From the NCBI GenBank assembly GCA_944358825.1, contig CALVSA010000002.1, positions 17,707-81,706 on the forward strand: DNA of 64,000 nt, given 5' to 3'. Below are positions 2,962 to 62,312 of the stretch, piece after piece. Source of the stretch: an uncultured Bacilli bacterium. Its GTDB lineage: Bacteria > Bacillota_I > Bacilli_A > RF39 > UBA660. Numbering within the stretch: position 1 is the first letter of the stretch; the number at the start of each line of letters is the position of its first letter. Below the pieces are notes generated by a model. It did not search any database. It had not been told where the DNA came from and was given only the letters and a program-made list of their open reading frames with translations. The translations under genes and the position numbers were made by a program.

Positions 2962-3160
2962 AAAAAAGATGGTATAAAAGGACGAGAAAACCCGCGGTAC
3001 CACCTTTTTTTATAACTATGTTATACACTCAATTCTTAACGCGATTAAACGATTAAAACTAAAGGGTGAATTCATATTTAATAACTAGCTCTACTCTCAT
3101 CATCTAGAACTTTCTGTATAGTTATTTTACAAATACTACTACTTCCTTATTATTGTTTTA
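2962..3160 (-). promoter_or_regulatory. T-box riboswitch leader (Phe specifier) controlling the small ORF-pheS-pheT unit
   Basis: The minus-strand transcript carries the conserved T-box core AAAGGUGGUACCGCGGG (plus coordinates 2992..3004). A terminator follows in which GGUGGUA pairs with UACCAUC and is followed by a U-run (2964..2976). Upstream there is a GAAUUCA specifier-like triplet, UUC for Phe. Confidence 0.6.
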
Positions 3161-3703
3161 TTAAATAGTCATTAATTCTTTTTCTTTTTCTTTTAATTTT
3201 TCATCAACTATTTTGTTAAAATCATTAATTAATTCTTGAACTTTTTCATTAGCTCTTTTTTCTTCATCTTCACTTAACTCTAAATTATCAATTGCCTTAT
3301 TTGCATCTTGTCTGATATTACGAAGAGCAATTCTTGCTTCTTCAGCGATTTGTTTTACTTGTTTTACTAGTTCTTTTCTCCTATCTTCTGTTAAAGCTGG
3401 AATAACTATAAATATTGATTCACCATTATTATTTGGTGTTAATCCTAAATCAGCTTCAAAAATTGCCTTTTCTATATCTTTTAAAATACTTTTATCAAAT
3501 GGCTTTATTGATAATTGACGAGCTTCTGGAATAGAAATATTTGCTAGTTGTTTGATTGGAGTGTCAACTCCATAATAACTAACTGTTATGTCATTTAATA
3601 TATTAGGATTTGCTCTACCCGCTCTTACGTTAGTAAATTTATGTTCTAATGAATTAATTGATAATTCCATTTTTTCTTTGGCATTTTCTAATACACTTTC
3701 CAT
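3161..3703 (-). CDS. frr: Ribosome recycling factor
   Basis: 180 aa with the typical RRF length and sequence pattern (VRAGRANPNIL.., DLGLTP). Confidence 0.9.
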   Translation of the reverse strand: MESVLENAKEKMELSINSLEHKFTNVRAGRANPNILNDITVSYYGVDTPIKQLANISIPEARQLSIKPFDKSILKDIEKAIFEADLGLTPNNNGESIFIVIPALTEDRRKELVKQVKQIAEEARIALRNIRQDANKAIDNLELSEDEEKRANEKVQELINDFNKIVDEKLKEKEKELMTI

Positions 3704-3736
3704 GTTTATCTTTCCCTTCTTAAATATTATAACATC

Positions 3737-4699
3737 TTACTTATTCAATGTCAAAACTTTTATTTTTTTATCATAGTTAAATGCCGCTTCCAAATATTTT
3801 TTATTATGAAACTTATATAAAGTATCTTTATAAATACTATAAGCTGTTTTCTTATCTTCTTGAAATAATAAATTAACACTATCAACATAGACAATATCTA
3901 ATATTTGATATATCAATTGTTGAGTAGGATCAGGTTCAACTAATTCATGTTGTGTTTCAAGAAAGTTGTATAAACTTTTTGATAAATAATCTGTTTTAAT
4001 TATGTTATAATTAAATATTAATCCTGCGTCTGTTTTTTCTAATACATCATATAGTAGTTTAGAATATAAATATGTATTTTCTAGGCTTTTATTTTTATTT
4101 AATAGTTCTAAATTATTTTTACCAAATACATTTACGACTATGTATTTATATTTAATTAGTGTTTCTTTAATTTCATTATTAGCTATTAAATTAATATAAG
4201 TATTTAAATTACATATAAATAGTTCTAATAGATCATTAAACAATTGACTTTCTACTAAATATGTATTTAATCGTCGCTCACAAAAAATTTCTTGTTCGTC
4301 ATCTTCAAAATCATAATAATCTGTTTCTATAAATTTAGTTTTTTTATTTTTAATTAAATAATTATCTTTTAATAATGATTTAAAACGAACATTACTACTA
4401 CTTCTAAAGTCTAAACTTAAAAGTGATAAAATCGTAAATTTTTCATTAATATTATCAAGACTATCATAAGCAGTACTTGCATCTATCATATCCATCATTT
4501 CTGTTACTTCCCTAGTAGATAATCTTTTATAGTCTTTTTCTTCTTTTTGAAGTTGTTCTTTAAGAACTTTATAAATTTTTTCATAAGTTAGTTTATCATT
4601 ATTTATTTCTGCTTGTGATAATTCTTCAAATAACATACTTATATCATCACTACATGATAATAGAAATTCCATTTCTGAACCAAATTGTTCTTCATTCAT
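3737..4699 (-). CDS. Hypothetical acidic protein (320 aa)
   Basis: Long ORF with an AAGGTG RBS. No recognisable domain. It is co-oriented and tightly spaced with the two upstream genes. Confidence 0.5.
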   Translation of the reverse strand: MNEEQFGSEMEFLLSCSDDISMLFEELSQAEINNDKLTYEKIYKVLKEQLQKEEKDYKRLSTREVTEMMDMIDASTAYDSLDNINEKFTILSLLSLDFRSSSNVRFKSLLKDNYLIKNKKTKFIETDYYDFEDDEQEIFCERRLNTYLVESQLFNDLLELFICNLNTYINLIANNEIKETLIKYKYIVVNVFGKNNLELLNKNKSLENTYLYSKLLYDVLEKTDAGLIFNYNIIKTDYLSKSLYNFLETQHELVEPDPTQQLIYQILDIVYVDSVNLLFQEDKKTAYSIYKDTLYKFHNKKYLEAAFNYDKKIKVLTLNK

Positions 4700-4741
4700 A
4701 AAATCACCTTGTTTAGTATTATAGCAACTTTTTTATTTTTT

Positions 4742-5587
4742 TCAATATATTTCTGATAATATTTGATCTAAAGATACTATTTTATATCCTTTAGAAACTA
4801 TAAAGTTTATTATTTGACTAAACTCATTTAATGTTTTAGTGTTTGGTTCTAATAATATTAAACTGCCATTTGTAATATTATTTTTAATATTATTATACGC
4901 ATGATTATTGGTAATAATAGTTGGATAAATTGTATGCATTTTTTTATTTTTACAAGTATTTAAGGTATTTTTATTTTTTTTATCAGTTAAACAATATAAA
5001 GATTTATTATTAAAATTATTATTAATCAAGTTATTAGCATACACCAAATTATCGGTTGTATAATTACTATTATCACCATAAGTATATATAAAATAATTAT
5101 CTTTTTTTAAATCATTTAAGTTGTCCGCTAATAATTTGTAGTCTATAAAAATATTTAGATAAACGTCTTTAATACTTAAAATCTGATTTAAATCATTTTT
5201 ATTTTTTATTGTAAAAATTAAGGCTACATTTTTTTTGATATTATTTCCTTTGACAATATATTTATCATAAATATTAGATAATGAATTTTCTACTTTTATT
5301 TGTTTGTATGAAAGAAGCATTTCTTTAAAAATTCCTACTTGTTTCATATCTTTATAGCTTTTTTCAACATCGACTTCATATCCATTTAAGCCTGGAGTTA
5401 TTGTATCTTTAGTAATAATAGCGTTAGTTGGTTCTTTTTTATATTTATCTTTTTCTTCGTTTATTTTTATCATTATTTCATCTTGTTCATTTACTACATC
5501 CATTATAGTTTCTGTATAAAAAAAACTAAAACATATTAAACTTATAAGGCCGATCATTTTAATAATATCTCTCAAAATATCACCCAT
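4742..5587 (-). CDS. Membrane-anchored polysaccharide deacetylase-like protein (PdaB-like, degenerate catalytic motif)
   Basis: It has an N-terminal TM helix. VALIFTIKNKND stands in place of the NodB TFDDG motif. The C-terminal GSLILLEP...KGYKIVSLDQIL resembles the NodB-fold C-terminus of B. subtilis PdaB. Confidence 0.35.
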   Translation of the reverse strand: MGDILRDIIKMIGLISLICFSFFYTETIMDVVNEQDEIMIKINEEKDKYKKEPTNAIITKDTITPGLNGYEVDVEKSYKDMKQVGIFKEMLLSYKQIKVENSLSNIYDKYIVKGNNIKKNVALIFTIKNKNDLNQILSIKDVYLNIFIDYKLLADNLNDLKKDNYFIYTYGDNSNYTTDNLVYANNLINNNFNNKSLYCLTDKKNKNTLNTCKNKKMHTIYPTIITNNHAYNNIKNNITNGSLILLEPNTKTLNEFSQIINFIVSKGYKIVSLDQILSEIY

Positions 5588-5600
5588 ATAAATATATGTT

Positions 5601-6914
5601 TTAATTAGCTTTAAATTCTTTTTTCTTGATTTTTATACTTTTAGTTTCCTCGATCATAGCATTTGAAAATTCTTCATCGATTAACTTATCGACAATACGA
5701 TTTAAAGATCTTGCTCCTTTATGATCTAAAAGAGCTAATTCAGCAATTTTTTCAATGGTTTTTTTGTCAATATTAAAATCTATTCCTAGACTTTTAAAAG
5801 TTTTTTTCATTAGTCCTAAACGTCCTTTAGGAGAGTTTAATATTTCAATTAATATTTCTTTAGTCATAGGATTTAATCTTCGTATTTTATTAATTCTACC
5901 CATTATTTCTGGTTCAAAACCATACTCTACTATTTTATCTGTTATGTTAGTTAGTTCATTATTTTGTTTAGTTCTAAATCCTTTATCATAATTAAATCCA
6001 ATTAAATTTTTATTTTTTTCTTCTTCTAAAGATGAGAAGGCTCCTAGAAAGATTATAGTAAGTCCATGAGTATTAAATTCAAAAACTTTATTACCAATAC
6101 TTACTTCACGATTACTTCCTTCAATCATTGTTAGTAACGATCTTTGTACTCCTTCTTTATTAATACCTGAACTTTTTGACTCTTTGTTTTTAGCTAGTTT
6201 ATCAAATTCATCAATTACTAATATTGAATGTTGTGCTAAATCTATGTTTTCATCAGCATTAATAAGTATTTTATAAAGCATATGATCAACACTGTTACCC
6301 ACATATCCTACTTCTGTATAAGTAGTAGCATCAACTATTGTTATAGGTATATTTAAATTAGCAGATATTTGTCTTATTATTTCTGTTTTACCAACACCAG
6401 TTGGTCCCATAATTAATAAGTTATGTTTTAATTTTGCTACTTCGTTTAATGTAAGAGAAGAATTATATAGTTTTTGGTTCCATTCAATAGATGCAAGAAT
6501 TGATTTTACATGTTCGTCTTGGCCTTTTACAACATCAACTACATTTTTATAAACATTAATTGGTTTTTGTTTTCCATTTATTAAATCAACTAATTCTGGA
6601 TTAGTAATAATTGCTAACTCTACTTTACCATTGCAAATTTTAGCTGTAAAATATTTACCACTGTAATCTTCATCGTATTTAGCTAAAATATCAATACCAT
6701 AATCATCAGTTCCTTTTGGATAAAAATAATATTCATTATTTGTCGTTGCAAATAAGTTAATATTATCTACAAATCTTTGTTCCCAAAATATTTGTCCTTG
6801 GGCTGCTTCTTCATTTCCATAACAACATGAGACAATATATTCGAATGTATCTATTTTTTCTCCTTTAAATTCTACTTCTTTTTTCTTCAAGACAAAACAA
6901 TAATTTTCATGCAT
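5601..6914 (-). CDS. ClpX-like AAA+ ATPase lacking the C4 zinc finger, with a novel ~150 aa N-terminal domain
   Basis: Walker A LLIMGPTGVGKTE, ClpX-like DATTYTEVGYVG, Walker B VIDEFDKL, and GVQRSLLTMIEGS matching ClpX GVQQALLKLIEGT. The N-terminus has no CxxC zinc-binding motif. Confidence 0.6.
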   Translation of the reverse strand: MHENYCFVLKKKEVEFKGEKIDTFEYIVSCCYGNEEAAQGQIFWEQRFVDNINLFATTNNEYYFYPKGTDDYGIDILAKYDEDYSGKYFTAKICNGKVELAIITNPELVDLINGKQKPINVYKNVVDVVKGQDEHVKSILASIEWNQKLYNSSLTLNEVAKLKHNLLIMGPTGVGKTEIIRQISANLNIPITIVDATTYTEVGYVGNSVDHMLYKILINADENIDLAQHSILVIDEFDKLAKNKESKSSGINKEGVQRSLLTMIEGSNREVSIGNKVFEFNTHGLTIIFLGAFSSLEEEKNKNLIGFNYDKGFRTKQNNELTNITDKIVEYGFEPEIMGRINKIRRLNPMTKEILIEILNSPKGRLGLMKKTFKSLGIDFNIDKKTIEKIAELALLDHKGARSLNRIVDKLIDEEFSNAMIEETKSIKIKKKEFKAN

Positions 6915-7000
6915 AATAACACCTCTAACTTGACTTTTATTTTATTATATCAAAAAGATAAAGTCAAGAAAAATAAATATTAATATTTGTATTTTTAATA

Positions 7001-7022
7001 ATAAAAACTGACACTATGTCAG
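7001..7022 (-). terminator. Rho-independent terminator downstream of rpoZ
   Basis: Palindrome CTGACActaTGTCAG (7008..7022), followed on the minus-strand transcript by a U-run. Confidence 0.5.
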
Positions 7023-7031
7023 CTTTATGAT

Positions 7032-7229
7032 TTATTTCTTCACATGAATTAAATTTTCATATACTTCTTCTAATGCTCTGCCGATATTTTTTGCTGAATG
7101 ATATTCTGATTCTTTCATTTGATAGTAACCAGTTCTTTCCATTTGTTTGCTACGACTAGCTACTATATATACTAACTCATATTTAGAATCAACAATATTT
7201 AGGATTTTATCAATTGAAGGATAAATCAT
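7032..7229 (-). CDS. rpoZ: DNA-directed RNA polymerase subunit omega
   Basis: 65 aa. MIYPSIDKILNIVDSKYELVYIVASRSKQM matches the Firmicute RpoZ/YloH N-terminus MLxPSIDxLxxKxDSKYxLV. Confidence 0.7.
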   Translation of the reverse strand: MIYPSIDKILNIVDSKYELVYIVASRSKQMERTGYYQMKESEYHSAKNIGRALEEVYENLIHVKK

Positions 7230-7307
7230 TTATATCACACTCCCTCTTCCCTACTAATACTAGAATATAATATTATCTTTTAAATTGCAATATGTTTTAC
7301 ATAAATT

Positions 7308-8198
7308 TTACAAATTACTCTTTTCGTGTTTAATAATATCAACTGCTGCAATTACTCCTTCATTGGCTGCGGTTACTAATTGATATACATCCTTTTTTAT
7401 TGCATCACCAATAGCATAAACATTAGGCAAAGATGTATGCATTTTAGAATCAACTATTATATAATTATTATCATTTTCTAACTTTAGCATATTGGCAATT
7501 GGTTCGTATCCTATAGCAATAAATACTCCATCTGCTTTTATTTCTCGATTATCTTTTAATTTTACTTTTGTTAGTTTGTCTTCGTTTGTTATATATTCTA
7601 CTACTTCATTATCATAAATTATTTGTGTATTAGGAAATTCTTTTAACTGTTCTACTAATTTATCTTCTGCTCTTAAATTATTACGACGATGTATTACACT
7701 AACTTTATTACAAATATTTGCTAAATAAATAGCGTCTTCAATAGCACTATTTCCACCACCAATTACTACTACGTCTTTGTTTTTATATAAGCTACCATCA
7801 CATAATGCACAATAACTTATTCCTTTTCCTATTAATCTTTCTTCATTTTCTAAATTTAGTTTACGTGGTGCTCTACCAGTTGCTATTATTAAATATTTGG
7901 TTTTTATTTCTTCTTTTTTAGTTTTGATAATAATGGTATCTTCTTTTGTTATATTTATTACTTCATCATATAAATATCTTACATCTAGTTTTTTTACTTG
8001 ATTATAAATATTAAAAGCTAAATCAGGTCCACTTATTTTTTCAAAACCAGGATAATTTTCAATAACATTTGCTTTATGTAATTGTCCTCCCGCTACTTCT
8101 TTTTCCATAATAAGTGGATCTATTCCTGCTCTTTTTAAGTATATTGCACTACTCATACCGGCAATTCCAGACCCTATTATAACTACTTTTTCTTCCAT
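7308..8198 (-). CDS. trxB: Thioredoxin reductase-like FAD/NAD(P) oxidoreductase
   Basis: 296 aa with GSGIAGMSSA and GGGNSA dinucleotide motifs and a CALCDG redox-active disulfide like TrxB CATCDG. Confidence 0.75.
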   Translation of the reverse strand: MEEKVVIIGSGIAGMSSAIYLKRAGIDPLIMEKEVAGGQLHKANVIENYPGFEKISGPDLAFNIYNQVKKLDVRYLYDEVINITKEDTIIIKTKKEEIKTKYLIIATGRAPRKLNLENEERLIGKGISYCALCDGSLYKNKDVVVIGGGNSAIEDAIYLANICNKVSVIHRRNNLRAEDKLVEQLKEFPNTQIIYDNEVVEYITNEDKLTKVKLKDNREIKADGVFIAIGYEPIANMLKLENDNNYIIVDSKMHTSLPNVYAIGDAIKKDVYQLVTAANEGVIAAVDIIKHEKSNL

Positions 8199-32529: not shown

Positions 32530-34308
32530 TCATGGAAGTGGAATTAATATATATTCATTACCATATTTTTCTTTATAATATTCTAACTTATCCCACACAT
32601 TATTAAAGTCAATTTCTTCTACATTTATTTTTTTAAATATAGGATATCTATTATCAAAATATTTCTGAATTTTAGACAACTTGTTTTCCCTATCCTCATC
32701 AGCATTATTAACTGCATATTTGAGTAAATCATCTATTTCTTTTGTAGGAGCAAAATTAATTCCTGTATATAAAGAAAGCATTTGATTAAAAGTAGTTTTA
32801 ACTTCTCCCTTTGCATTATAATATTTATCAAATACAGAAATTGCATCTAGTGTTTTATCTTCATTTGAATGTGTATAGATAAAAGTAGTAGATAGTTGTG
32901 AATGTCCCATTAACTTTTGAACATCAGCTGGAGATAAGTTTGGATTTTCATTCATTTGCATAGTACAATAACTATGTCTTAATCCATGTAACGATACATT
33001 TCTTATTTCTGGATGTCTTTTTCTAAAATCTAACCATTTACTAGAAACAGAATCAGGGAACATTATTCCCCCATATTTGCTTAAAAACAGATTTTCCGGT
33101 GGATTATAATTATCAAATTTTCTTTTAAACCTTTGAATAATCCTATCTCTTAACTTAAAATATTCTCTAATAATTTCTGTGCAAAATAATGGTATTGGGA
33201 CATTTCTAACACTATTTTTTGTTTTAGTATCTTTTTCAACTATTTTTTGTTTTTCCTTATCTCAAACGACTGCTCGTTTTACTGAAATTGAATTGTTTAT
33301 AAAATCAATGTCATCAATGTGTAAGCCAAGTATTTCTCCTCTTCTTAACCCTGTGCATATTGAAATTGTAAACATAGTTTCAATTAATAACCCTTCTTCT
33401 TTCAATAAATCTAATATTTTCATTAATTCTTCTCGATTGTAGGACTGCTTTTCTTTTTTAGAAACCTCGGGTGTCTTTACTTTTAACACAGGATTAGTTT
33501 CAATATAGTCCCAAGCAACTGCTTTATTAAGAATCTTCCTCAAAAGTCTATATACCCCATTAACAGTTGTTTCAGATAATTTTTTTACACTACCATCTTT
33601 TTCTTTTCTTTCTTTATCTCTATCTTTTAAATTGTTAATAATTTTTTGAATTACTAATACATCAATTTTATTTAAAGGATAATTAGCAATCTCTGGCAAT
33701 ATATATGTTCTTAATGAACTCTTACCACTTGCAACAGTTGTAGGACTTAACTCCACTTCTGCATATTCTTTATAATAAATTCTTACAAAATCAATAAATC
33801 TAATATTCCCTTTATCACTTTTCCCATTTTTTAATTTTAGCTCTGCTAATCTCTTATCCCTTTCCTTTTTAGCCTGTGCTAAAGTCCCTTCAAATACTTT
33901 TGAATAGTATTCTCCCTTTTGACCATTTTAGCCACCCTTTCTAATAAATATCCTATATTTTTTCCCTTTTTCAATCTCATATAAGTATTTATCTACTTTT
34001 TTAGTATCTTTCCCTGATACTGTTGCCCGTGGTTTTGTTGGATTAGTTTTAGTTTGCTTTTTTTCCTTTGCATCAAATTCAGCAAAGAAATAAGTTTTCT
34101 TCTTTTCAGTTTCTAAACATAATCCATTTTCTTTTAATTTATTATCTCTTAAATTTCTGGCCTCATCTAAACTACCATTAATATATTGATCAAAACTAAT
34201 TCGAATATTACGTGTCTTATCTACTTTTAAAAACTTTACCCTATATCTGTTTTCAGAAACATAATAAATATATTTATCTACTTTTTCTTGCATTTTTCCA
34301 CCCTCCAT
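32530..34308 (-). pseudogene. Tyrosine site-specific integrase, disrupted by an in-frame TAA at 33928..33930 and a frameshift near 33250..33265
   Basis: Three ORF pieces are collinear with one phage integrase. 33928..34308 is the arm-binding N-terminus. 33262..33756 is the core-binding region and box I R (TGLRRGEILGL). 32530..33063 is the catalytic HGLRHSY...GHSQLSTTFIYTH region. The first two pieces are in the same frame, separated by a single stop. The second and third are in different frames. Confidence 0.75.
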
Positions 34309-34568
34309 TAAATTTCATATTTATTTTTTTCATTATTCATAAAAAAACTCCCTCCTTTTGACCAAAGAGAGAAAAAAATCTTTTCAAATTAATATTTTTG
34401 TGTATAATATTAAGTGTGTTGGATTTATTAATCTCCTTGGTCGGAAATTATAATAAACCAACACATTTTATTTTGCAATATTTTTTTGCCAGAAAATAAA
34501 GACTTTTCGTTAGAAATTTGGTACAATTAGATATATGAAATGTTATTCATATTTAGGAGATGATATTT

Positions 34569-35387
34569 ATGGAAAAATTAAATCTAGATACTTTAGAAGA
34601 AACATTGTTTGTTCCAATGAGAGGAAGAGTCTTTTGCAGTAGAACTTTTCCAGATACTTTTAAAGATGAAAAAGCATTGGAAATAGCAAAAGAGTTACCA
34701 GAAGAATATATGAATTTAGAAAGAGAAACAGAATATACTTTAATGGCTAGTGCTATTAGAAGTAAAAATATGGATATTTATATCAAAAAATTCTTATCAA
34801 AGAATCCTAATGGAACAATTATAAATGTTGGATGTGGAATGGAAACAACATTCTATAGAAATGATAATGGTAAATGTATATTTATTGAAATGGATTTAGA
34901 AGAAGTAACATCAATGAGAGAAAAAGTTTTTGGCAAGAATAAAAGAGATATTATACTAACTAAATCATTACTTGATTATAGTTGGATTGAAGATGTTAAA
35001 AAAATAGCAAAAGGTCCATATTTAATAATTGCAAGTGGAGTGTTCTATTATTTTCCTAAAGATCAAATAATAGATTTTTTAAGAAAAGTAAAATTATTAG
35101 GTAATGTAGAAATATTATTTGATACTGTTTCTAAAAGTGGAATGAAGAGAACAAAAAAATATATGAAACAATTAGGAAAAGAAGATGCAACAATGTATTT
35201 CTATGTAGAAAAAGGAAAAGAATTAATTAATGAAATTGGAAATAATTGCAAATTAATTGATGAACATGATTTTTATGATTTTACCGAAAATAAAAGTAAA
35301 TTTAAATTTAAAACAAAACTATATATGGTTATTTCAGATAAACTTCATATGGTTAAAATGATACAATTAAAATATGGAGATGAATAA
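34569..35387 (+). CDS. SAM-dependent methyltransferase, TcmP/LCM (leucine carboxyl methyltransferase-like) family
   Basis: IINVGCGMETTFYR resembles the VVnLGaGlDTRayR motif of the LCM/TcmP family. An AGGAGA RBS precedes ATG at 34569. Confidence 0.55.
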   Translation: MEKLNLDTLEETLFVPMRGRVFCSRTFPDTFKDEKALEIAKELPEEYMNLERETEYTLMASAIRSKNMDIYIKKFLSKNPNGTIINVGCGMETTFYRNDNGKCIFIEMDLEEVTSMREKVFGKNKRDIILTKSLLDYSWIEDVKKIAKGPYLIIASGVFYYFPKDQIIDFLRKVKLLGNVEILFDTVSKSGMKRTKKYMKQLGKEDATMYFYVEKGKELINEIGNNCKLIDEHDFYDFTENKSKFKFKTKLYMVISDKLHMVKMIQLKYGDE

Positions 35388-35388
35388 T

Positions 35389-36165
35389 ATGAATATATTA
35401 TTGGGATTATTGATACCTTTTGTTGGAACCACATTAGGAGCTGCAATGGTATTCCTAATGAAAAACAAATTAAATAAAAAGGTCGAAAAAGTATTATTAG
35501 GTTTTGCTTCTGGTGTTATGGTAGCTGCTTCCGTCTGGTCATTACTTATTCCATCAATTGATATGGCAAAAGAGCAAAATATAATAGCTTGGTTACCAGC
35601 AACCGTGGGATTCATTTTAGGAATTGTATTCTTATTAATATTAGATAATATAATTCCCCATTTACATATTAAAAGCAAAGAACCAGAAGGATTAAAATCT
35701 AAATTAGGAAAATCTGCAATGATGGTATTAGCTGTAACACTTCATAACATTCCAGAAGGTATGGCTGTTGGAGTTGCTTTAGCTGGAGCAATTAGTGGTA
35801 ATAGTACGATTACCGTGATGGGAGCAATTGCTTTATCAATAGGAATTGCAATTCAAAACTTCCCAGAGGGTGCGATTATATCAATGCCATTAAAAGAAGA
35901 AGGAAATACTAAAAGTAAGTCATTTATATATGGTACATTATCAGGTATAGTTGAACCTATATTTGGAGGACTTACTATTTTACTAACTTCATTAGTAGTT
36001 CCAATTTTACCTTATTTATTATCATTTGCAGCAGGAGCTATGATATATGTAGTTGTAGAAGAATTAATACCAGAATCACAGGTTGGCAAACATTCAAATT
36101 TGGGAACGATAGGATTTGCGTGCGGGTTTATCTTAATGATGATCTTGGATGTAGCATTAGGTTAA
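35389..36165 (+). CDS. ZIP-family divalent metal transporter (ZupT-like)
   Basis: Eight TM helices with the ZIP signature HNIPEGMAVG and the second motif QNFPEGAII. Its start codon abuts the methyltransferase stop, so translation is coupled. Confidence 0.8.
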   Translation: MNILLGLLIPFVGTTLGAAMVFLMKNKLNKKVEKVLLGFASGVMVAASVWSLLIPSIDMAKEQNIIAWLPATVGFILGIVFLLILDNIIPHLHIKSKEPEGLKSKLGKSAMMVLAVTLHNIPEGMAVGVALAGAISGNSTITVMGAIALSIGIAIQNFPEGAIISMPLKEEGNTKSKSFIYGTLSGIVEPIFGGLTILLTSLVVPILPYLLSFAAGAMIYVVVEELIPESQVGKHSNLGTIGFACGFILMMILDVALG

Positions 36166-36376
36166 AATAGATCGGAAGATTAAGATATTGTGATTAATGA
36201 GATAGTTGAAAAACCTATCTTTTTATTTTTTTGTCTTATTATAAGAAACGCGAAAGGAAATATGCTATTGCATTATGCTATTGCATTATAAAAACTTAAA
36301 TAAAAAACAAGTTTTTTCACAAAAGTCATAAAAAGGCAATAAAGCCCCTTACCCCATAAAAAGTATTATGTGATTA

Positions 36377-37790
36377 TTAAGTTAATAATGTTTTTTTAGT
36401 ATAAATTAGAATACTATTAATAATCTTTCTACCAGAAGTAGTCAAATAATATTTATTCTTATTGGCTACTTTTTTAATAAGTCCATGGGCTTTTAATTTT
36501 GATAACAGTCTAGTAGTCTTGTTAATAGTTTTCTTATCTTCACTATTTTCAAAAATATTTTTTCTAATCATTTTGTTAGTAAAACCATTAATTAAGTATT
36601 CGCCTTTAGATATTTCAGAAAATATTTTTAAATTTTGTTCATTTAAAATATTAATTCCAGAATAAACTTTATTATTAATTTCTGCTCTTTTAGATATCCT
36701 TTCAATTTCCTTTAAAGGAACTTCATCAATATTAATATCAGGTAATGCTTCTATATATCTTTTTATAATGTTTTTACTTATTTCTACATATCGATATAAA
36801 TTTGCAATACTTTTTCCCATAGGAACCCATTGTTTTGTTTCTACAATTTCTCCAGTTTCATCATTTTCTTTAGTTTTCAACACTTTAAAATCCTTAGGAT
36901 TATTGATAGTAACTTCAATCCTTAAATTGTTTCCTTTATCATACATTTTGATTTGATTATTATTAATCTTAAATTTTATTCGGTAACCTTGATACCTGTT
37001 TCTTAAATCGGAAACAATTTCTCCTTTTTTTAAAGTATTAATATAATTCACATTTCTACCAAAGAAAGAATATATATCTTCACTACTAAATGTAAAGTAT
37101 GTAGTTTCAACCAGTGTCTTATAAAATAAACTTAAGTCTTCACGACTTTTAAAATTAATATCAGTTGCAAACTCACATTGATCAATACACCAGTAATATG
37201 AATGATTAAATATGTTTCTAATTTTAGGTAAATGAATATTTATCTTCTCAACTAATCCATCAAAAGAATCAGATATTTTTTTATTCAAAATACTATCTGC
37301 AAGTTTTTGAGATTTTTCAAAATCTTCAATATATGAAAAAGAATTGTTATACATTTCATATTTAATATTATTCTTATCAAGTAATTTAGATAAATATTCT
37401 CTTCCATTGATATAAATTTGGACATTATAAGGAAACCAAGTTTGGATTTTTAGAAACATTAAACCAAACTCTTCATCATTAAAGTAAAAATAATAATGCT
37501 TACATTTAGTAGGTCTTGGGGGAACCTCTAACTTTTTCTATTTCTAAATAATGATACTCTTGCAATTCCTTTAGTATGGATCTAATTCCATCTCTACCCT
37601 CTTTACTTATAGAGCAAAGACCTGCCAAAGAATAATCCCAATCTTCTGGCAAACTTAACATAAACGATAATAACCCTTTAGCTTTATACGATAAATTTTT
37701 ATCTCTTAAGTGATAATTAGACATAACAGTATAGTTATTATTTTTTTCTATTTTAAAAACTGACATATTTACACCTCCTAACATTTGCAA
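36377..37790 (-). pseudogene. Replication initiator with a RepA_N-family N-terminus, split by a frameshift at a C5 run (37478..37482) into 94-aa and 360-aa ORFs
   Basis: The N-terminal ORF carries the RepA_N pattern YTVMSNYHLRDKNLSYKAKGLLSFMLSLPEDWDYS. The downstream ORF's frame stays open upstream across GGTTCCCCCAAGACC, where the two frames overlap. Confidence 0.5.
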
Positions 37791-38533: not shown

Positions 38534-38953
38534 CTATTTTTCAATCATGTTTAATAAATTAATTTTAAATATATCTTTTTCAGCATGACTTTTAGATACC
38601 ATTACTCCTTTATAAGTAGTAAGTTCTCTTTGGTGTCCTTCTGTTAATATTTCTTCTGGTGTAATTGTATCTAACATAACTATCTTTTGATTAGCGTATA
38701 CTGTATAATGTAATACTATGTCTCCATGAACTTTAGAAAACATCTCATCAGTTGGTAATTTTAATTCATATTTTGTAATTCCATCTTTAGTGTTTTTAGA
38801 AACGGCAACCCCCTTAAATTCACCGTCTCTAAAAGAAGGATAATAATCAAACATCATTTTTTTGTAAGCAAGCATATTATACTTCTTAATAGATCTTTCC
38901 TTTTTTCTAAATTCATTTTCATTTAAATATTCAATAACATAAGCATTTTTCAT
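38534..38953 (-). CDS. Hypothetical protein (139 aa)
   Basis: ORF with an AAGGGGG RBS. No confident family. Confidence 0.4.
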   Translation of the reverse strand: MKNAYVIEYLNENEFRKKERSIKKYNMLAYKKMMFDYYPSFRDGEFKGVAVSKNTKDGITKYELKLPTDEMFSKVHGDIVLHYTVYANQKIVMLDTITPEEILTEGHQRELTTYKGVMVSKSHAEKDIFKINLLNMIEK

Positions 38954-50118: not shown

Positions 50119-51462
50119 TTAGTTAATTAATTGATAAGGAGAACTCGAAGTTCCATTACCAGAAGTTATTGTAACATTAGAGTTTAGATAAAGGACTGGG
50201 CGGGAGGAGCCGGAGTTAGTAGCATTGTTGAGGTCAACATAACCCATACTATGAACGATAAAGACGCGGTAGGAAATACCAGCGTGAGAAGCGAGTGTCC
50301 ATTGACGATTAGATGAATCATATAAATAATCATTGTTTTTACAATCACTATAACTTGAGCTATCCCAGTTATATAATTCTTTGGCTAAACATGATGCTCT
50401 ATTAGTTGTTGTTCCACCACTTGTTGCATACCCATAATCTGATGGATACATTAGGGCTATTTTACCTACCCATGTGGTTGGATTTCCAGAATATACTGTC
50501 GTTCCTCTTTCATAATTATAAAAGTGGCTGGCTAGTCCATTAGATGCACTTGTATATGAATTTGTTCCACCTAAATTCCATAAAGTGTTGCCAATCATAG
50601 ACTCTGCTTCACTTGTTAAGCTATTTAAATATTCACCATTTAAATATGTATTTAATGAGGCTGTTGACCAGTTGTTTCTATCATTTGAATCCCATACATA
50701 TTTTCCTATACTCTCATCTCTTATTATTTTTAATCTCTTTTCACTTTCGCCATTTTCACTAGATTTTACATCAAATACTCCTATTATTCTCCATAATTCA
50801 TTATTAAAACTTACATAGTTATTAGGATCTGCTCCCATATATCTTATATTACCATCTAGATCATCGTTATTCATGGTAGTTGGATTACTATCAAGTAATG
50901 ATGTTATTACATCAGTAGCTAATTTTGATTTAATATATTCACTACTTATTCCATCACTTACTATTTTTGCACTAAAAATCTTACCAATTTCCGTATTTGG
51001 TGTATTTATATCTAACCATATTCTTATACTTATTATCTTACTTTCTCCTGGATTTAGAGTTAAATCACTGGCTATAATATTATTCTCTAGATTAGATAAA
51101 CTAACAGGTTCATTATTATCTACCATTATTTTTATATAATTAGGATTTATTTGATTAGATGTAGTAGTGTTATTTAATAACAAATCAAAAGTATAAGCTA
51201 AATTACCTTTATTTGTTATTTTAAATCTATAAGGAGTACTACTCTTTCCCTCTTCATCTGTTATAGGCAAACTATTTGTAAGATTTAGTACCTCTCCTAA
51301 TCCTTCTTCATCATTTTCTATTACTATATCTAATATACCCGCAGTATAACTTTCTGTATTTTCTAGTTTATCTTTTCTAAAAAATAAAGCATAAGTAGTA
51401 GTTGATAAAATTAATAAAACTACTATTATTGATATAACTAATATAATTACTTTCTTTTTCAT
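50119..51462 (-). CDS. Secreted protein with a TasA/camelysin-like (SipW-cognate signal-peptide class) N-terminal domain and a unique Asn/Ser/Tyr-rich C-terminal domain
   Basis: The N-terminus MKKKVIILVISIIVVLLILSTTTYALFFRKDKLENTESYTAGILDI resembles TasA/CalY TWAAFNDIK...FASGTLDL. VLNLTNSLP...FKITNKGNLAYTFDL resembles VNLSNLKPGD..FENNGSLAI. The first ~180 aa are ~90% identical to the paralog at 61057. Confidence 0.5.
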   Translation of the reverse strand: MKKKVIILVISIIVVLLILSTTTYALFFRKDKLENTESYTAGILDIVIENDEEGLGEVLNLTNSLPITDEEGKSSTPYRFKITNKGNLAYTFDLLLNNTTTSNQINPNYIKIMVDNNEPVSLSNLENNIIASDLTLNPGESKIISIRIWLDINTPNTEIGKIFSAKIVSDGISSEYIKSKLATDVITSLLDSNPTTMNNDDLDGNIRYMGADPNNYVSFNNELWRIIGVFDVKSSENGESEKRLKIIRDESIGKYVWDSNDRNNWSTASLNTYLNGEYLNSLTSEAESMIGNTLWNLGGTNSYTSASNGLASHFYNYERGTTVYSGNPTTWVGKIALMYPSDYGYATSGGTTTNRASCLAKELYNWDSSSYSDCKNNDYLYDSSNRQWTLASHAGISYRVFIVHSMGYVDLNNATNSGSSRPVLYLNSNVTITSGNGTSSSPYQLIN

Positions 51463-58923: not shown

Positions 58924-59796
58924 TTATCCATTTATTTGTTTTGCAACTTCATCAGCAAAGTTTTCTTCTTTTTTCTCCATTCCTTCACCAACTTCATAAC
59001 GTACAAAACTATTTATTTTACTATTTTTAGATTCAACATATTTACCAACTTTAGTTTTATTTTCTTTTACAAAGCCTTGATCAACTAAACATACTTCTTC
59101 ATAAAATTTATTTAGGCGTCCATTTACTATCATTGGTATTTTATTAGTATCTAAACCTTCATTTTCAGCTTGTTCTGTTAAAATAGTTTTTTCTTTTTCA
59201 ATTACTTCACTTGGAACTTCTTCTCTAGTTAAATAACTAGGACGCATTGCAGCAATTTGCATGGCAATATCTTTAGCTAGTTCTACGTCATTTCCATCCA
59301 TTACACATAATGTTACTATTTTACCACCCATATGTGAATATGTTCCAAATACTTGATTATCTTCTTTTGTTACTTTTGTAAATCTTCTAAATGATAATTT
59401 TTCACCAATTGTAGATATTTTTTCAACAATTAACTCTTCTAATGTTTTATCATCAACATTTAATTTTAGTGCATCTTCAACATTAGTAACATTACTTTCT
59501 AATAAAATATCAGCAATTTTATCTACTAAAGATTTAAACTCTTCATTTTTAGCAACAAAATCAGTTTCAGAATTTACTTCTAATATAACTGCATTATTAC
59601 CGTTTACTTTTGTAAGTCCAAGTCCTTCTGCTGCGATTCTTGAAGCTTTTTTAGCGGCTTTAGAGATACCTTTTTCTCTTAACCATGTAATTGCTTCTTC
59701 CATATTACCATTAGTTTCTTCTAATGCTTTTTTACAATCTAACATGCCGGCGCCAGTTGTTTCTCTTAATTCTTTAACCATGCTTGCACTTATCAT
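58924..59796 (-). CDS. tsf: Elongation factor Ts
   Basis: 290 aa. N-terminal UBA-like region VKELRETTGAGMLDCKKALEE. Confidence 0.9.
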   Translation of the reverse strand: MISASMVKELRETTGAGMLDCKKALEETNGNMEEAITWLREKGISKAAKKASRIAAEGLGLTKVNGNNAVILEVNSETDFVAKNEEFKSLVDKIADILLESNVTNVEDALKLNVDDKTLEELIVEKISTIGEKLSFRRFTKVTKEDNQVFGTYSHMGGKIVTLCVMDGNDVELAKDIAMQIAAMRPSYLTREEVPSEVIEKEKTILTEQAENEGLDTNKIPMIVNGRLNKFYEEVCLVDQGFVKENKTKVGKYVESKNSKINSFVRYEVGEGMEKKEENFADEVAKQING

Positions 59797-59810
59797 TTTA
59801 CTCTTCCTTT

Positions 59811-60788
59811 CTATTTTAAGCTTGCTATTAATTCATCTTTTTTCATTTTTGAATAGCCTTTTATTTCTTTTTTCTTGGCTAATTCACGTAGTTCAGATAC
59901 TGTTAATATTTCTAAATCTATTTTAGTTTCAACTTCTTTATTAACTGTTTCTTCTTTTTTTGGCTCTTCTTTTGTTTCTTTTACTTCTTTATTTTCTTTT
60001 TTCTCTTCTTTTTTAGTTTCTTTTTTTACTTCTTTGGTCTTTTTGCTTTCGCTTTTATCGAATTTAGTTTTCTTATTTTCATCTTCTGTTACATAATCTA
60101 CTAAAGTACCACCATTAGCTTCTACTATTGCATTTGTTAATGCTCCAAGAACAACTTTAATACTTCTTACTGCATCATCGTTTCCTGGAATTACATAATC
60201 TACCATATCTGGATCACAATTTGTATCAATTATTCCAAATACTGGTATTTTTAATTTTCTAGCCTCACGAATAGCGTTGTATTCTTTAGTTGAATCAACA
60301 ATAATAATTGCTTGTGGTAATCTTTGCATATCGCGAATACCATGTAGGTTACGATCTAATTTTTCGTATTCTTTTTTAAGACCAATTACTTCTTTTTTAG
60401 GTAATTTTTCAAATGTACCATCTTTTTCCATCTTTTCGATTTCTTCTAATCTGTTAACTCTTTTTCTAATTGTTCTAAAATTAGTTAGTGTTCCTCCTAA
60501 CCATCTTTCAGTAACATAATACATTCCTGCTCTTTCAGCTTCTTCTTTGCAAACTTCACTAGCTTGTTTTTTAGTTCCAACGTATAGAACTTTTCCACCT
60601 TCTTGAGCAATTTTGTGTAAAGCATTATATGCTTCTTCTATTTTTTCTACTGTTTTAGATAAATCGATAATATAAATATCGTCTCTTGAGTTGTAGATAT
60701 ACTCTTTCATTTTTGGATTCCATCTTTTGGTTTGATGACCAAAATGAACTCCAGCTTCTAATAAGTAGCTCATAGATACTACTGCCAT
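59811..60788 (-). CDS. rpsB: 30S ribosomal protein S2 with a ~100-aa Lys/Glu-rich C-terminal extension ending in a Rho_N/SAP-like helix-extended-helix motif
   Basis: [27 protein letters not shown] is a canonical S2 N-terminus, with an AAGGAGG RBS before ATG at 60788. The tail is [54 protein letters not shown]. Confidence 0.9.
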
Positions 60789-61056
60789 TTTATTTCCTCC
60801 TTTTGTTTTTCCTCCAAATACTTCTTCTTTAAACATCACCTAATAGGCACTAGATATTTAAATCAGTATTTGTGTGTATTTTTGAAAAGCCATAAATATA
60901 TTATCATGTTTTATGGCTTTTTACAACTATATTTTGTTATTTTTTTATGTTTTTTTAAAGCGATGCTTAATGATTTATCTAAATACTATTATATATTATG
61001 TTTATTTATATATATGATGTATGTATATGATAAATTATTATATACATAATAGCAAC

Positions 61057-62172
61057 TTAACAACTAAATCCGCCATTTCCAATATCTTCTGCTCCACCTC
61101 CACCTTTTGCATAAACAACACCACCATTTATTCTAATTATACCTGTAACAGAAGCCTCTTTATAACCTCCAATTCCTGCACCACCACCTGCTCCACTTCC
61201 ATTATCATAACCTTCCATATTAGTTGCTCCTATTCCTACTCCTCTACCTTCTGAATTTAATACCCCTGTTCCATCTATTATTAATTTTGATGAATAAGAA
61301 ACATATAAACCAACTGATGGTGAAGCACTTGAAGAAGAATTTGTTTTTAAACTATTTTCTCCTTCAATTTGCAAATTAACTACTGAATCATTAAATAATC
61401 TAAATGTGCCTCCATTAAATCTATCTTCTGTTATACTAACATTATTTAATGTTATATTAGATTCTCCTCCATTAATAGTTACTCCTCTATTATCTGTTGC
61501 AGTTCCTGTTATAACAATAGGTGTTTTATTTGATATTTCTTGTTGAGAATCTAGTCCTCCACCACTTACTAATAATGTATTATCACCATTTCCTTTATCT
61601 ATAGTAATTGCTCCTTTTGATATACCTAAATTCATTATTTCTGGAGCCTCACTACCTACTCCATCACTTACTATTTTTGCACTAAAAATTTTTCCTATTT
61701 CACTATTTGGTGTATTTATATCTAACCATATTCTTATACTTATTACCTTACTTTCTCCTGGATTTAGAGTTAAATCACTGGCAATAATTGAATCTTTTAA
61801 ATTAGATAAAGTAACTAGCTCTTTATTATCTACCATTATTTTTATATAATCAGAATTTATTTGATTAGAAGTAGTTGTATTATTTAACAACAAATCAAAT
61901 GTATAAGATAAATTACCCTTATTAGTTATCTTAAACTTATATGGATTACTTTTCTTACCTTCTTCATCTGTTATAGGCAAACTATTTGCAAGATTTAGAG
62001 TTTCCCCTAATCCTTCTTCATCGTTTTCTATTACTATATCTAGTATTCCAGCAGTATAACTTTCCGTATTTTCTAGTTTATCTTTTCTAAAAAATAAAGC
62101 ATAAGTAGTAGTAGATAATATAACTAAAACCACTATTATTGATATAACTAATATAATTACTTTTCTATTCAT
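61057..62172 (-). CDS. Secreted protein with a TasA/camelysin-like N-terminal domain and a Gly-rich (beta-helix-like repeat) C-terminal domain; paralog of 50119..51462
   Basis: The N-terminal ~180 aa are near-identical to the paralog. The C-terminus is GGGLDSQQ...GSGAGGGAGIGGYKEASVTG...GGGGAEDIGNGG. A GAAGGAG RBS precedes ATG at 62172. The track start at 62193 is further upstream. Confidence 0.5.
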   Translation of the reverse strand: MNRKVIILVISIIVVLVILSTTTYALFFRKDKLENTESYTAGILDIVIENDEEGLGETLNLANSLPITDEEGKKSNPYKFKITNKGNLSYTFDLLLNNTTTSNQINSDYIKIMVDNKELVTLSNLKDSIIASDLTLNPGESKVISIRIWLDINTPNSEIGKIFSAKIVSDGVGSEAPEIMNLGISKGAITIDKGNGDNTLLVSGGGLDSQQEISNKTPIVITGTATDNRGVTINGGESNITLNNVSITEDRFNGGTFRLFNDSVVNLQIEGENSLKTNSSSSASPSVGLYVSYSSKLIIDGTGVLNSEGRGVGIGATNMEGYDNGSGAGGGAGIGGYKEASVTGIIRINGGVVYAKGGGGAEDIGNGGFSC

Positions 62173-62312
62173 ATTACTCCTTCTTTCACACAATAAAAAA
62201 ACAGAAAAAGATTCTAAAAATTAGAATTATTTTCTGTTTTTATTATTTTATTATTAAATATTTTATTATTTTTTAGTAATAAATTTGACCCCCATATTTA
62301 CTTGTAGTTAAC
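61648..62312. repeat. Duplicated ~665-bp segment, copy B
   Basis: Paralogous to 50938..51601. Confidence 0.85.
62196..62241 (-). terminator. Terminator hairpin, duplicate of 51486..51530, downstream of the aminopeptidase gene
   Basis: AAAAAAACAGAAAAAGATTCTAAAAATTAGAATTATTTTCTGTTTTT. Confidence 0.5.

Follow-up and report, generated by a model that had tools for sequence, protein, structure and literature searches.

Introduction

ClpX is among the best-studied AAA+ unfoldases, and its zinc-binding N-domain serves as a platform for adaptors and for many substrates. Myxococcus xanthus encodes ClpX3, a ClpX paralogue that lacks the zinc-binding dimerisation domain and coexists with other ClpX copies (PMC11423568). 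Here we describe an ATPase of the ClpX type, encoded in a 64-kilobase (kb) stretch of DNA from an uncultured Bacilli bacterium, in which the zinc domain appears to have been replaced by a different N-domain, together with the two genes that follow it. The first of these resembles ylxY, a signature sporulation gene that is sigma-E dependent in Bacillus subtilis and whose product carries a single membrane anchor (PMC9332280); in a further protein that bears on this comparison, Ba3943, the TFDDG motif is missing (PMC6115787). The second encodes an acidic protein. The whole stretch is called the window below, and all positions are positions within it unless a homologue is named; labels from L001 to L092 denote the homologous contigs or loci that were compared with it.

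On balance, we lean towards reading this region as a run of separately promoted genes, comprising a general ClpX-type unfoldase, a diverged YlxY and a clade-specific acidic protein, whose order has been kept through common ancestry. The point of interest is the ATPase family itself, a ClpX variant with an undescribed N-domain that is common in uncultured gut Bacilli.

Results

The ATPase and its relationship to ClpX

The region has a G+C content of about 25%. The genes considered here are all on the minus strand, where the order, 5' to 3', is rpoZ, a terminator, the ATPase of 437 amino acids (aa), a 281-aa YlxY-like protein, a 320-aa acidic protein, frr, a 97-aa open reading frame (ORF; orf97) and pheS. 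The three central genes had been described, in an earlier reading made from the sequence alone (the sequence-only reading), as co-oriented and closely spaced downstream of rpoZ; the ORFs are confirmed, with gaps of 13 nucleotides (nt) between the ATPase and the YlxY-like gene and 42 nt between the YlxY-like and acidic genes, and rpoZ is genuine. The ATPase is laid out as follows.

5601..6914, minus strand: ClpX-like AAA+ ATPase, 437 aa (ORF with an NCBIfam ClpX match)
6552..6914, minus strand: N-domain of the ATPase, residues 1-121, predicted alpha/beta, acidic (isoelectric point, pI, 4.7), no zinc site (AlphaFold2 model)
5601..6551, minus strand: ClpX-type AAA+ module, residues 122-437 (NCBIfam, PDB matches, alignment to Escherichia coli ClpX)

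The best NCBIfam match of the ATPase is the ClpX model NF003745, which aligns in one stretch over residues 114-433 and scores 193 bits against an equivalog cut-off of 359. A second ClpX model, TIGR00382, scores 165 bits against a cut-off of 371, and the NCBIfam HslU model reaches 110 bits in three fragments. The top sequence matches in the PDB are ClpX in every case, and identity to E. coli ClpX is 31%. Walker A (GPTGVGKT), pore-1 (GYVG), Walker B (IDEFD), the arginine finger (GRI) and sensor II (GARS) all stand in register with E. coli ClpX. The ClpP-docking IGF loop, which the sequence-only reading had singled out for inspection, is kept, LIGFN aligning with GIGFG of E. coli and with VLGFT of Helicobacter pylori. 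The RKH loop is gone, a 7-residue deletion lying opposite E. coli GGRKHPQQE. Among the PADLOC defence models, the ATPase shows generic AAA similarity only, the best being IetA at 36 bits. Judged from these alignments, the ATPase is a ClpX-family AAA+ protein. The earlier statement that it has every ClpX hallmark except the zinc finger is borne out for the motor motifs, the IGF loop and the zinc finger, and fails at the deleted RKH loop and at a score well short of the equivalog cut-off.

The C4 zinc-binding domain PF06689 finds no Pfam match in the ATPase, and the N-region contains no CxxC motif. That a zinc finger had been hidden by a start farther upstream was ruled out, since no start codon lies between that of the ATPase and the preceding stop, and the homologues of the ATPase share both this start and the N-terminal sequence. 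Because there is no CxxC and the ORF is unable to start farther upstream, the zinc finger is truly absent, as the sequence-only reading had supposed.

AlphaFold2, applied to residues 1-121 with 38 diverse homologues, returned a model with a predicted local distance difference test score (pLDDT) of 89.4 and a predicted template modelling score (pTM) of 0.81, containing a long beta-hairpin, further strands and three helices. No structural match was found with Foldseek (best E-value 0.15 against the PDB and 0.04 against the viral structures of BFVD), and no Pfam model matches the domain. A profile search for other architectures, with a sensitivity limited by its word index, recovered fragments and split genes of the same family only, and our literature search found no paper on a ClpX-like protein with such an N-domain. 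Because Pfam, Foldseek and the profile search gave nothing outside the ATPase family, the domain as modelled is new to the libraries searched and tied to this family. The sequence-only reading had allotted it about 150 aa with no recognisable motif; the domain indeed goes unrecognised, and its length is nearer 120 aa.

Ten contigs from several samples, all of one lineage, encode the N-domain as a 123-aa ORF of its own, and the AAA+ module follows directly as another ORF (5001-5372 and 5397-6446 in L088, L089 and L090). Full-length versions of the same protein are known too (P0040), so that what is seen is either a natural split between the two domains or an in-frame stop that recurs.

Distribution of the ATPase family

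A protein search with the ATPase found upwards of 100 clusters, 430-500 aa in length, none of which has the ClpX zinc-finger Pfam domain and all of which share a common N-terminal pattern. Among the species representatives of GTDB, 69 full-length members turned up at 67 loci. Nearly all of the members carry the titles of uncultured Bacilli, 'Tenericutes' or Erysipelotrichaceae metagenome-assembled genomes (MAGs); the nearest genome to that of the window is an uncultured Bacilli MAG (contig L003), with an ATPase identity of 74%. Not one of the 69 members has a C4 site and a single CxxC occurs in just one, while the Walker B DE is kept in 65.

The neighbourhoods of the family are varied and of a housekeeping kind (lysS, hisS, dnaE, a two-component system, rimM-trmD-fmt, secA/RNase J, rplM-rpsI and murD-greA-tig), and no family locus outside the window's own clade has a neighbour of the YlxY-like or acidic kind. 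In Bacilli clpX usually follows tig directly, and the gene order in the close relative L086 is greA-tig-ATPase. From these varied neighbourhoods and from the order in L086, the ATPase is probably a general unfoldase and not one dedicated to its neighbours in the window.

Most close relatives carry a tandem second copy of the ATPase (L002 2165-3424, L083 1801-3051, L084 1905-3149, L001 7323-8354 and L086 5134-5715), which occurs neither in the window nor in L003. In this copy Walker B reads DNFD, with loss of the catalytic glutamate, and GYVG has become DGDG or DGEG; the N-domain and an IGF-type loop are kept. From these substitutions it looks like a catalytically dead partner subunit.

The YlxY-like and acidic proteins

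4742..5587, minus strand: YlxY-like CE4/NodB protein, predicted pseudo-deacetylase, 281 aa (TIGR02873 spore_ylxY, PDB alignment, hydropathy)
3737..4699, minus strand: acidic protein, 320 aa, pI 4.8, predicted all-helical and cytoplasmic, clade-restricted (family searches)

The second gene matches TIGR02873 (YlxY; 'probable sporulation protein, polysaccharide deacetylase family'), the alignment covering positions 1-267 of a model 268 positions long, with an E-value of 3.7e-21 and 75.6 bits against a cut-off of 391.5. This is its only NCBIfam family match, and the same holds for its orthologues in L002, L003 and L083. The PDB entries 6hm9, 6hpa and 7bkf, which we take to be BA3943 of Bacillus anthracis, a CE4 pseudoenzyme, match with E-values of about 1e-12. 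In the PDB alignment, the position of motif 1 (TFDDG) reads FTIKN, the catalytic aspartate being replaced by threonine, and that of motif 2 (H(S/T)xxH) reads SNYTT, with both metal-binding histidines lost; Pfam Polysacc_deac_1 is not detected. Because the catalytic aspartate and both motif 2 histidines are lost, the predicted product cannot act as a metal-dependent deacetylase. Hydropathy indicates one N-terminal hydrophobic segment. The PADLOC defence models gave nothing for this gene, and our literature search found no paper linking ClpX to YlxY.

The sequence-only reading had called this protein PdaB-like. That identity was dropped, as no PdaB model in NCBIfam matches at E <= 0.1 and the YlxY model alone does so; the remainder of the description survives, and its similarities mark the product as a NodB-fold protein with degenerate motifs and a membrane anchor, from a sporulation family and YlxY-like in kind. 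The annotated ATG at 5587 falls inside a stretch (5573-5587) that aligns with the ribosome-binding site (RBS) of relatives (GGGTGAT), and the true start is probably the TTG at 5575, four codons shorter.

The third gene encodes a protein without a membrane segment and, as had been stated before, without a recognisable domain: Pfam, NCBIfam, PADLOC and the PDB all gave no match, and a 10-sequence profile of its family found nothing in Pfam or the PDB. Searches for homologues yielded just 3 clusters in a set of 5.8 billion proteins and, by exhaustive HMMER, 11 representatives in one of 1.84 billion. An AlphaFold2 model built from a 3-sequence alignment has a pLDDT of 52, too poor for a fold search. 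Its relatives are 33-54% identical, against 84-87% for frr in the same contigs, and by these comparisons the family is clade-restricted and fast-evolving. The most distant member (L091) is flanked by a tRNA gene and transketolase and has neither an ATPase nor a YlxY gene in its vicinity. The C-terminal peptide KVLTLNK is invariant in the family and is encoded by the DNA that forms the frr -35 box TTGACA (3737-3760); its conservation may reflect the frr promoter rather than the protein.

Promoters and gene order

7032..7229, minus strand: rpoZ, RNA polymerase omega, upstream neighbour (Pfam RNA_pol_Rpb6, E-value 4e-11; TIGR00690, 41.5 bits against a cut-off of 23.6)
7004..7026, minus strand: intrinsic terminator after rpoZ, with a stem of 10 base pairs (bp), a 3-nt loop and a T-run
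6939..6967, minus strand: sigma-A-type promoter of the ATPase, TTGACT-17-TAAAAT, overlapping a perfect extended -10 TGATATAAT at 6952-6944
5591..5618, minus strand: candidate sigma-E-type promoter of the YlxY-like gene, GAATTTA-N13-CATATATT, in the last ATPase codons
4718..4745, minus strand: sigma-A promoter of the acidic gene itself, TTGAAA-16-TGCTATAAT (TTGAMW-16/17-TGnTATAAT in relatives)
3726..3754, minus strand: consensus sigma-A promoter of frr, TTGACA-17-TATAAT with TG (12/12 consensus matches)
3161..3703, minus strand: frr, ribosome recycling factor, downstream neighbour (TIGR00496, 198.6 bits, above cut-off)

The ATPase promoter sits just past the rpoZ terminator, which is the sole minus-strand terminator predicted within 3000-7400, and its -10 region, ATAATAAA, does not vary among L001, L002 and L003. 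The -35, TG, -10 and RBS of the acidic gene are conserved in all five lineages aligned, and the frr promoter, which lies within the final codons of the acidic gene (VLTLNK), is invariant in five lineages. A strict consensus scan for sigma-E, sigma-K, sigma-F and sigma-G promoters in the 300 nt upstream of each gene gave no matches. From a relaxed, alignment-guided search that followed the strict scan emerged a sigma-E-like motif, GAATTWW-N13-CATAWANT, placed directly before the RBS of the YlxY-like gene and at the same position in five of six contigs (the window, L002, L003, L084 and L085). What marks it as a candidate promoter is its position and its conservation; of the sporulation-type promoter motifs for which the sequence-only reading had suggested a search, it is the one that came to light.

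The single operon with a dedicated unfoldase proposed by that reading is not supported by these results, with the ATPase, the YlxY-like gene, the acidic gene and frr each having a promoter or candidate promoter of its own and the ATPase family occurring elsewhere without the partners. From this arrangement the three genes seem to be adjacent, separately promoted units and not a single dedicated operon. As to their co-occurrence, the order of the ATPase, YlxY-like and acidic genes and frr is kept throughout the clade and is found nowhere outside these close relatives. Because the synteny extends equally to frr, orf97 and pheS, it does not separate function from ancestry, and common descent is the best explanation for the order kept in the clade.

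Several observations weigh against a reading of general unfoldase and separately promoted neighbours. The order, with or without the second ATPase, is present in all seven of the clade contigs that reach far enough (the window, L002, L003, L083, L084, L085 and L092), the clade being one of ATPases 47-74% identical, and it is maintained while the gene upstream of the block varies between rpoZ, surface-protein genes and tig. No terminator is predicted between the ATPase gene and frr; because of this and of the 13-nt gap, co-transcription of the ATPase and the YlxY-like gene by read-through is possible, as is a functional link between them. Counted window-wide, the sigma-E-like motif is at chance, with 5 occurrences against 5.0 expected. 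With respect to a dependence on ClpP, the IGF-type loop is present in 21 of the 69 family members and lost in the other 48, which keep the N-domain and the Walker motifs, and neither clpP nor a canonical clpX was found in the 64-kb window or near about 80 family loci.

The constancy of the order despite the upstream rearrangements, and the short gap without a terminator, are also what would be seen if the three genes formed a sporulation or envelope module, in which the N-domain of a dedicated unfoldase recognises the acidic protein as adaptor or substrate and YlxY-like or spore-envelope proteins are controlled or remodelled. An analogue is known from B. subtilis, in which CmpA and ClpXP exert quality control on the spore envelope. 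The acidic family and the ATPase subclade occur over much the same narrow range, YlxY marks sporulation, and the organism has spoIIGA and sigE, all of which fit such a module. Nevertheless, frr, orf97 and pheS share the same synteny, each gene has its own conserved promoter with sigma types that differ, and the promoter of the ATPase is of the sigma-A type. Moreover, the ATPase family is widespread without YlxY-like or acidic partners, the distant acidic homologue in L091 is uncoupled, and the NodB domain of the YlxY-like protein, with its single N-terminal membrane segment, is predicted to lie outside the cytoplasm, beyond the reach of a cytoplasmic unfoldase. We therefore regard a dedicated module as unlikely, and a role for the acidic protein as adaptor or anti-adaptor of the ATPase, though the most appealing guess at its function, is speculation.

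The variation of the docking loop raises a second alternative, of much the same low probability, namely that the ATPase is a ClpP-independent chaperone or remodeller, as mitochondrial ClpX of eukaryotes can be, with a vestigial IGF loop and a family that has moved as a whole away from proteolysis. Consistent with this are the loss of the loop in 48 of the 69 members, the missing RKH loop, the failure to find clpP in the window or near the family loci, and the tandem paralogue, whose dead Walker B and lack of a pore tyrosine suggest a specialised hetero-oligomer. Within the clade, however, the tripeptide of the docking loop is conserved as (I/P/F)GF(N/D), even in the degenerate paralogue, and it aligns exactly with the IGF/LGF loop of ClpX, which argues for selection on ClpP docking. 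Since clpP is often not linked to clpX in Bacilli, its absence from a 64-kb window says little. Besides the 48 losses of the IGF loop, 22 members also lack a GY(V/Q)G pore loop. Judging by the motifs retained and lost, the family seems to be drifting away, as it diversifies, from unfolding coupled to ClpP and may, as a whole, be ClpP-independent.

A still less probable scenario, which we would put forward as a conjecture at most, is that a large radiation of uncultured gut Bacilli swapped the zinc domain of ClpX for a structurally new one, that some of its lineages gained a dead tandem paralogue and others lost the ClpP-docking loop, and that in a sporulating clade the ATPase became tied to the YlxY-like and acidic proteins, the latter as adaptor or substrate, as a new spore-envelope quality-control module.

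An inverted repeat at the ATPase promoter

6929..6968, no strand assigned: perfect 9-bp inverted repeat, CTTGACTTT-N22-AAAGTCAAG (exact)

The sequence-only reading had proposed this repeat as an operator; its sequence and position are exactly as described, and its function as such finds no support. One arm consists of the -35 hexamer and its flanks and the other lies at the predicted transcription start, and in L003, L002 and L001 the promoter is kept while the arms are absent. Perfect 9-bp inverted repeats with gaps of 3-30 nt number 84 in the window, against 44 +/- 8.5 in Markov simulations, and distinct ones with at least three G/C per arm number 8, against 2.4 expected; the repeat at 6929-6968 is not beyond chance as a class. 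An RNA hairpin was rejected, with a fold z-score of -1.9 and no T-run. It is thus very improbable that the repeat is a repressor operator on the ATPase promoter: although it is perfect, brackets the promoter and is the only instance of its pattern in the window, its arms are not conserved where the promoter is, one of them simply coincides with the -35 hexamer, G/C-containing perfect repeats are common in the window, and no regulator gene is adjacent.

Other genes of the window

Upstream of rpoZ on the gene strand lie a trxB-like gene, lgt and a holin-like gene, and farther away SigE (320 bits) and SpoIIGA (133 bits). Because SigE and SpoIIGA are encoded in the window, mother-cell sporulation machinery is present in this organism, which agrees with the earlier view of it as a spore-former.

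A 139-aa protein (38534-38953, minus strand) without an NCBIfam match is encoded 32 kb from the ATPase of the window; its homologue immediately precedes the ATPase homologue in L009 and L061 and is the second gene upstream of it in L064. Two paralogous predicted surface proteins (50119-51462; 61057-62193, minus strand) have near-identical N-terminal regions of about 180 aa. The C-terminal region of the product of 50119-51462 resembles that encoded by genes inserted directly upstream of the ATPase in several relatives (L001 2913-4780, L083 3-368 and L084 2-502), and this surface-protein family appears variable and possibly mobile.

The rpsB-tsf pair (58924-60839) is not followed by pyrH-frr, unlike in many bacteria; frr (3161-3703) lies 55 kb off, behind the acidic gene, with its own consensus promoter. 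Tyrosine-recombinase or integrase fragments at 32530-33063 and 33262-33756 and a transposase-like ORF at 36377-37459, all from translations read by eye only, make 32530-37459 probably the remnants of a mobile element.

Discussion

The reading that we prefer, of a general unfoldase among separately promoted neighbours, would have the following shape. The ATPase belongs to a large offshoot of the ClpX family, undescribed so far, that occurs in host-associated, uncultured Bacilli of low GC content and in which a different N-domain, alpha/beta in fold and about 120-190 aa long, has taken the place of the C4 zinc domain. All residues of ATP hydrolysis and translocation are kept in the window's clade, as is the IGF loop, and the protein would form a hexamer that docks ClpP through its IGF loops. 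Its sigma-A promoter suggests a general, vegetatively expressed ClpX equivalent of the lineage; it may be the sole such equivalent and would work with ClpP. The N-domain would take over the recognition of substrates and adaptors from the zinc finger, and loss of the RKH loop may have altered tag specificity. The second gene would encode the lineage's highly diverged YlxY, a catalytically dead sporulation protein of the mother cell with one membrane anchor and its NodB domain outside the cytoplasm, and it is probably transcribed both from its own sigma-E-like promoter and by read-through from the ATPase gene. The third gene would encode a fast-evolving, clade-specific, cytoplasmic helical protein expressed from its own predicted sigma-A promoter.

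If this is correct, the family represents a wholesale rewiring of substrate selection in regulated proteolysis. It also marks a blind spot of annotation, as proteins of the family score below the cut-offs of the ClpX models. The gene-cluster aspect is of lesser importance and offers at most a lead to the function of YlxY-type pseudo-deacetylases in sporulation.

Closer comparison with described systems places the ATPase nearest to ClpX of E. coli, B. subtilis and H. pylori (PDB 1um8, 3hws and 6wr2). With these it shares a single AAA+ module of the HCLR clade with a C-terminal small domain, the Walker A and B motifs, the GYVG pore-1 loop, the IGF/LGF loop, the arginine finger and sensor II (GAR). 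It differs from them in having an unrelated alpha/beta domain of about 120 aa where they have the C4 zinc domain, in lacking the RKH loop, in its low identity to E. coli ClpX and sub-cut-off score, and in a Walker A of HslU-like form (GVGKTE). The likeness to HslU (ClpY) covers the Walker A region GPTGVGKTEI and the next 90 residues. HslU, however, has an I-domain insertion that is not found in the ATPase, in which the stretch from Walker A to Walker B is contiguous, as in ClpX; HslU has no IGF loop, and its model matches more weakly and in fragments. M. xanthus ClpX3 is likewise a ClpX-family ATPase without the zinc-binding domain, but there the domain is simply missing, whereas in the ATPase described here it is replaced by a new domain that is conserved and predicted to fold.

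The product of the second gene shares with YlxY and with the proteins of 6hm9, 6hpa and 7bkf full-length similarity to TIGR02873, an extension N-terminal to the NodB domain, degeneration of motif 1, a single membrane anchor and, if the candidate promoter in the window is genuine, sigma-E-type control. It is far more diverged than these, with HSYTH changed to SNYTT where the PDB protein keeps the histidines. With PdaB it has in common that both are sporulation-associated proteins of the NodB family; they are set apart by the model that recognises the second gene, which is that of YlxY.

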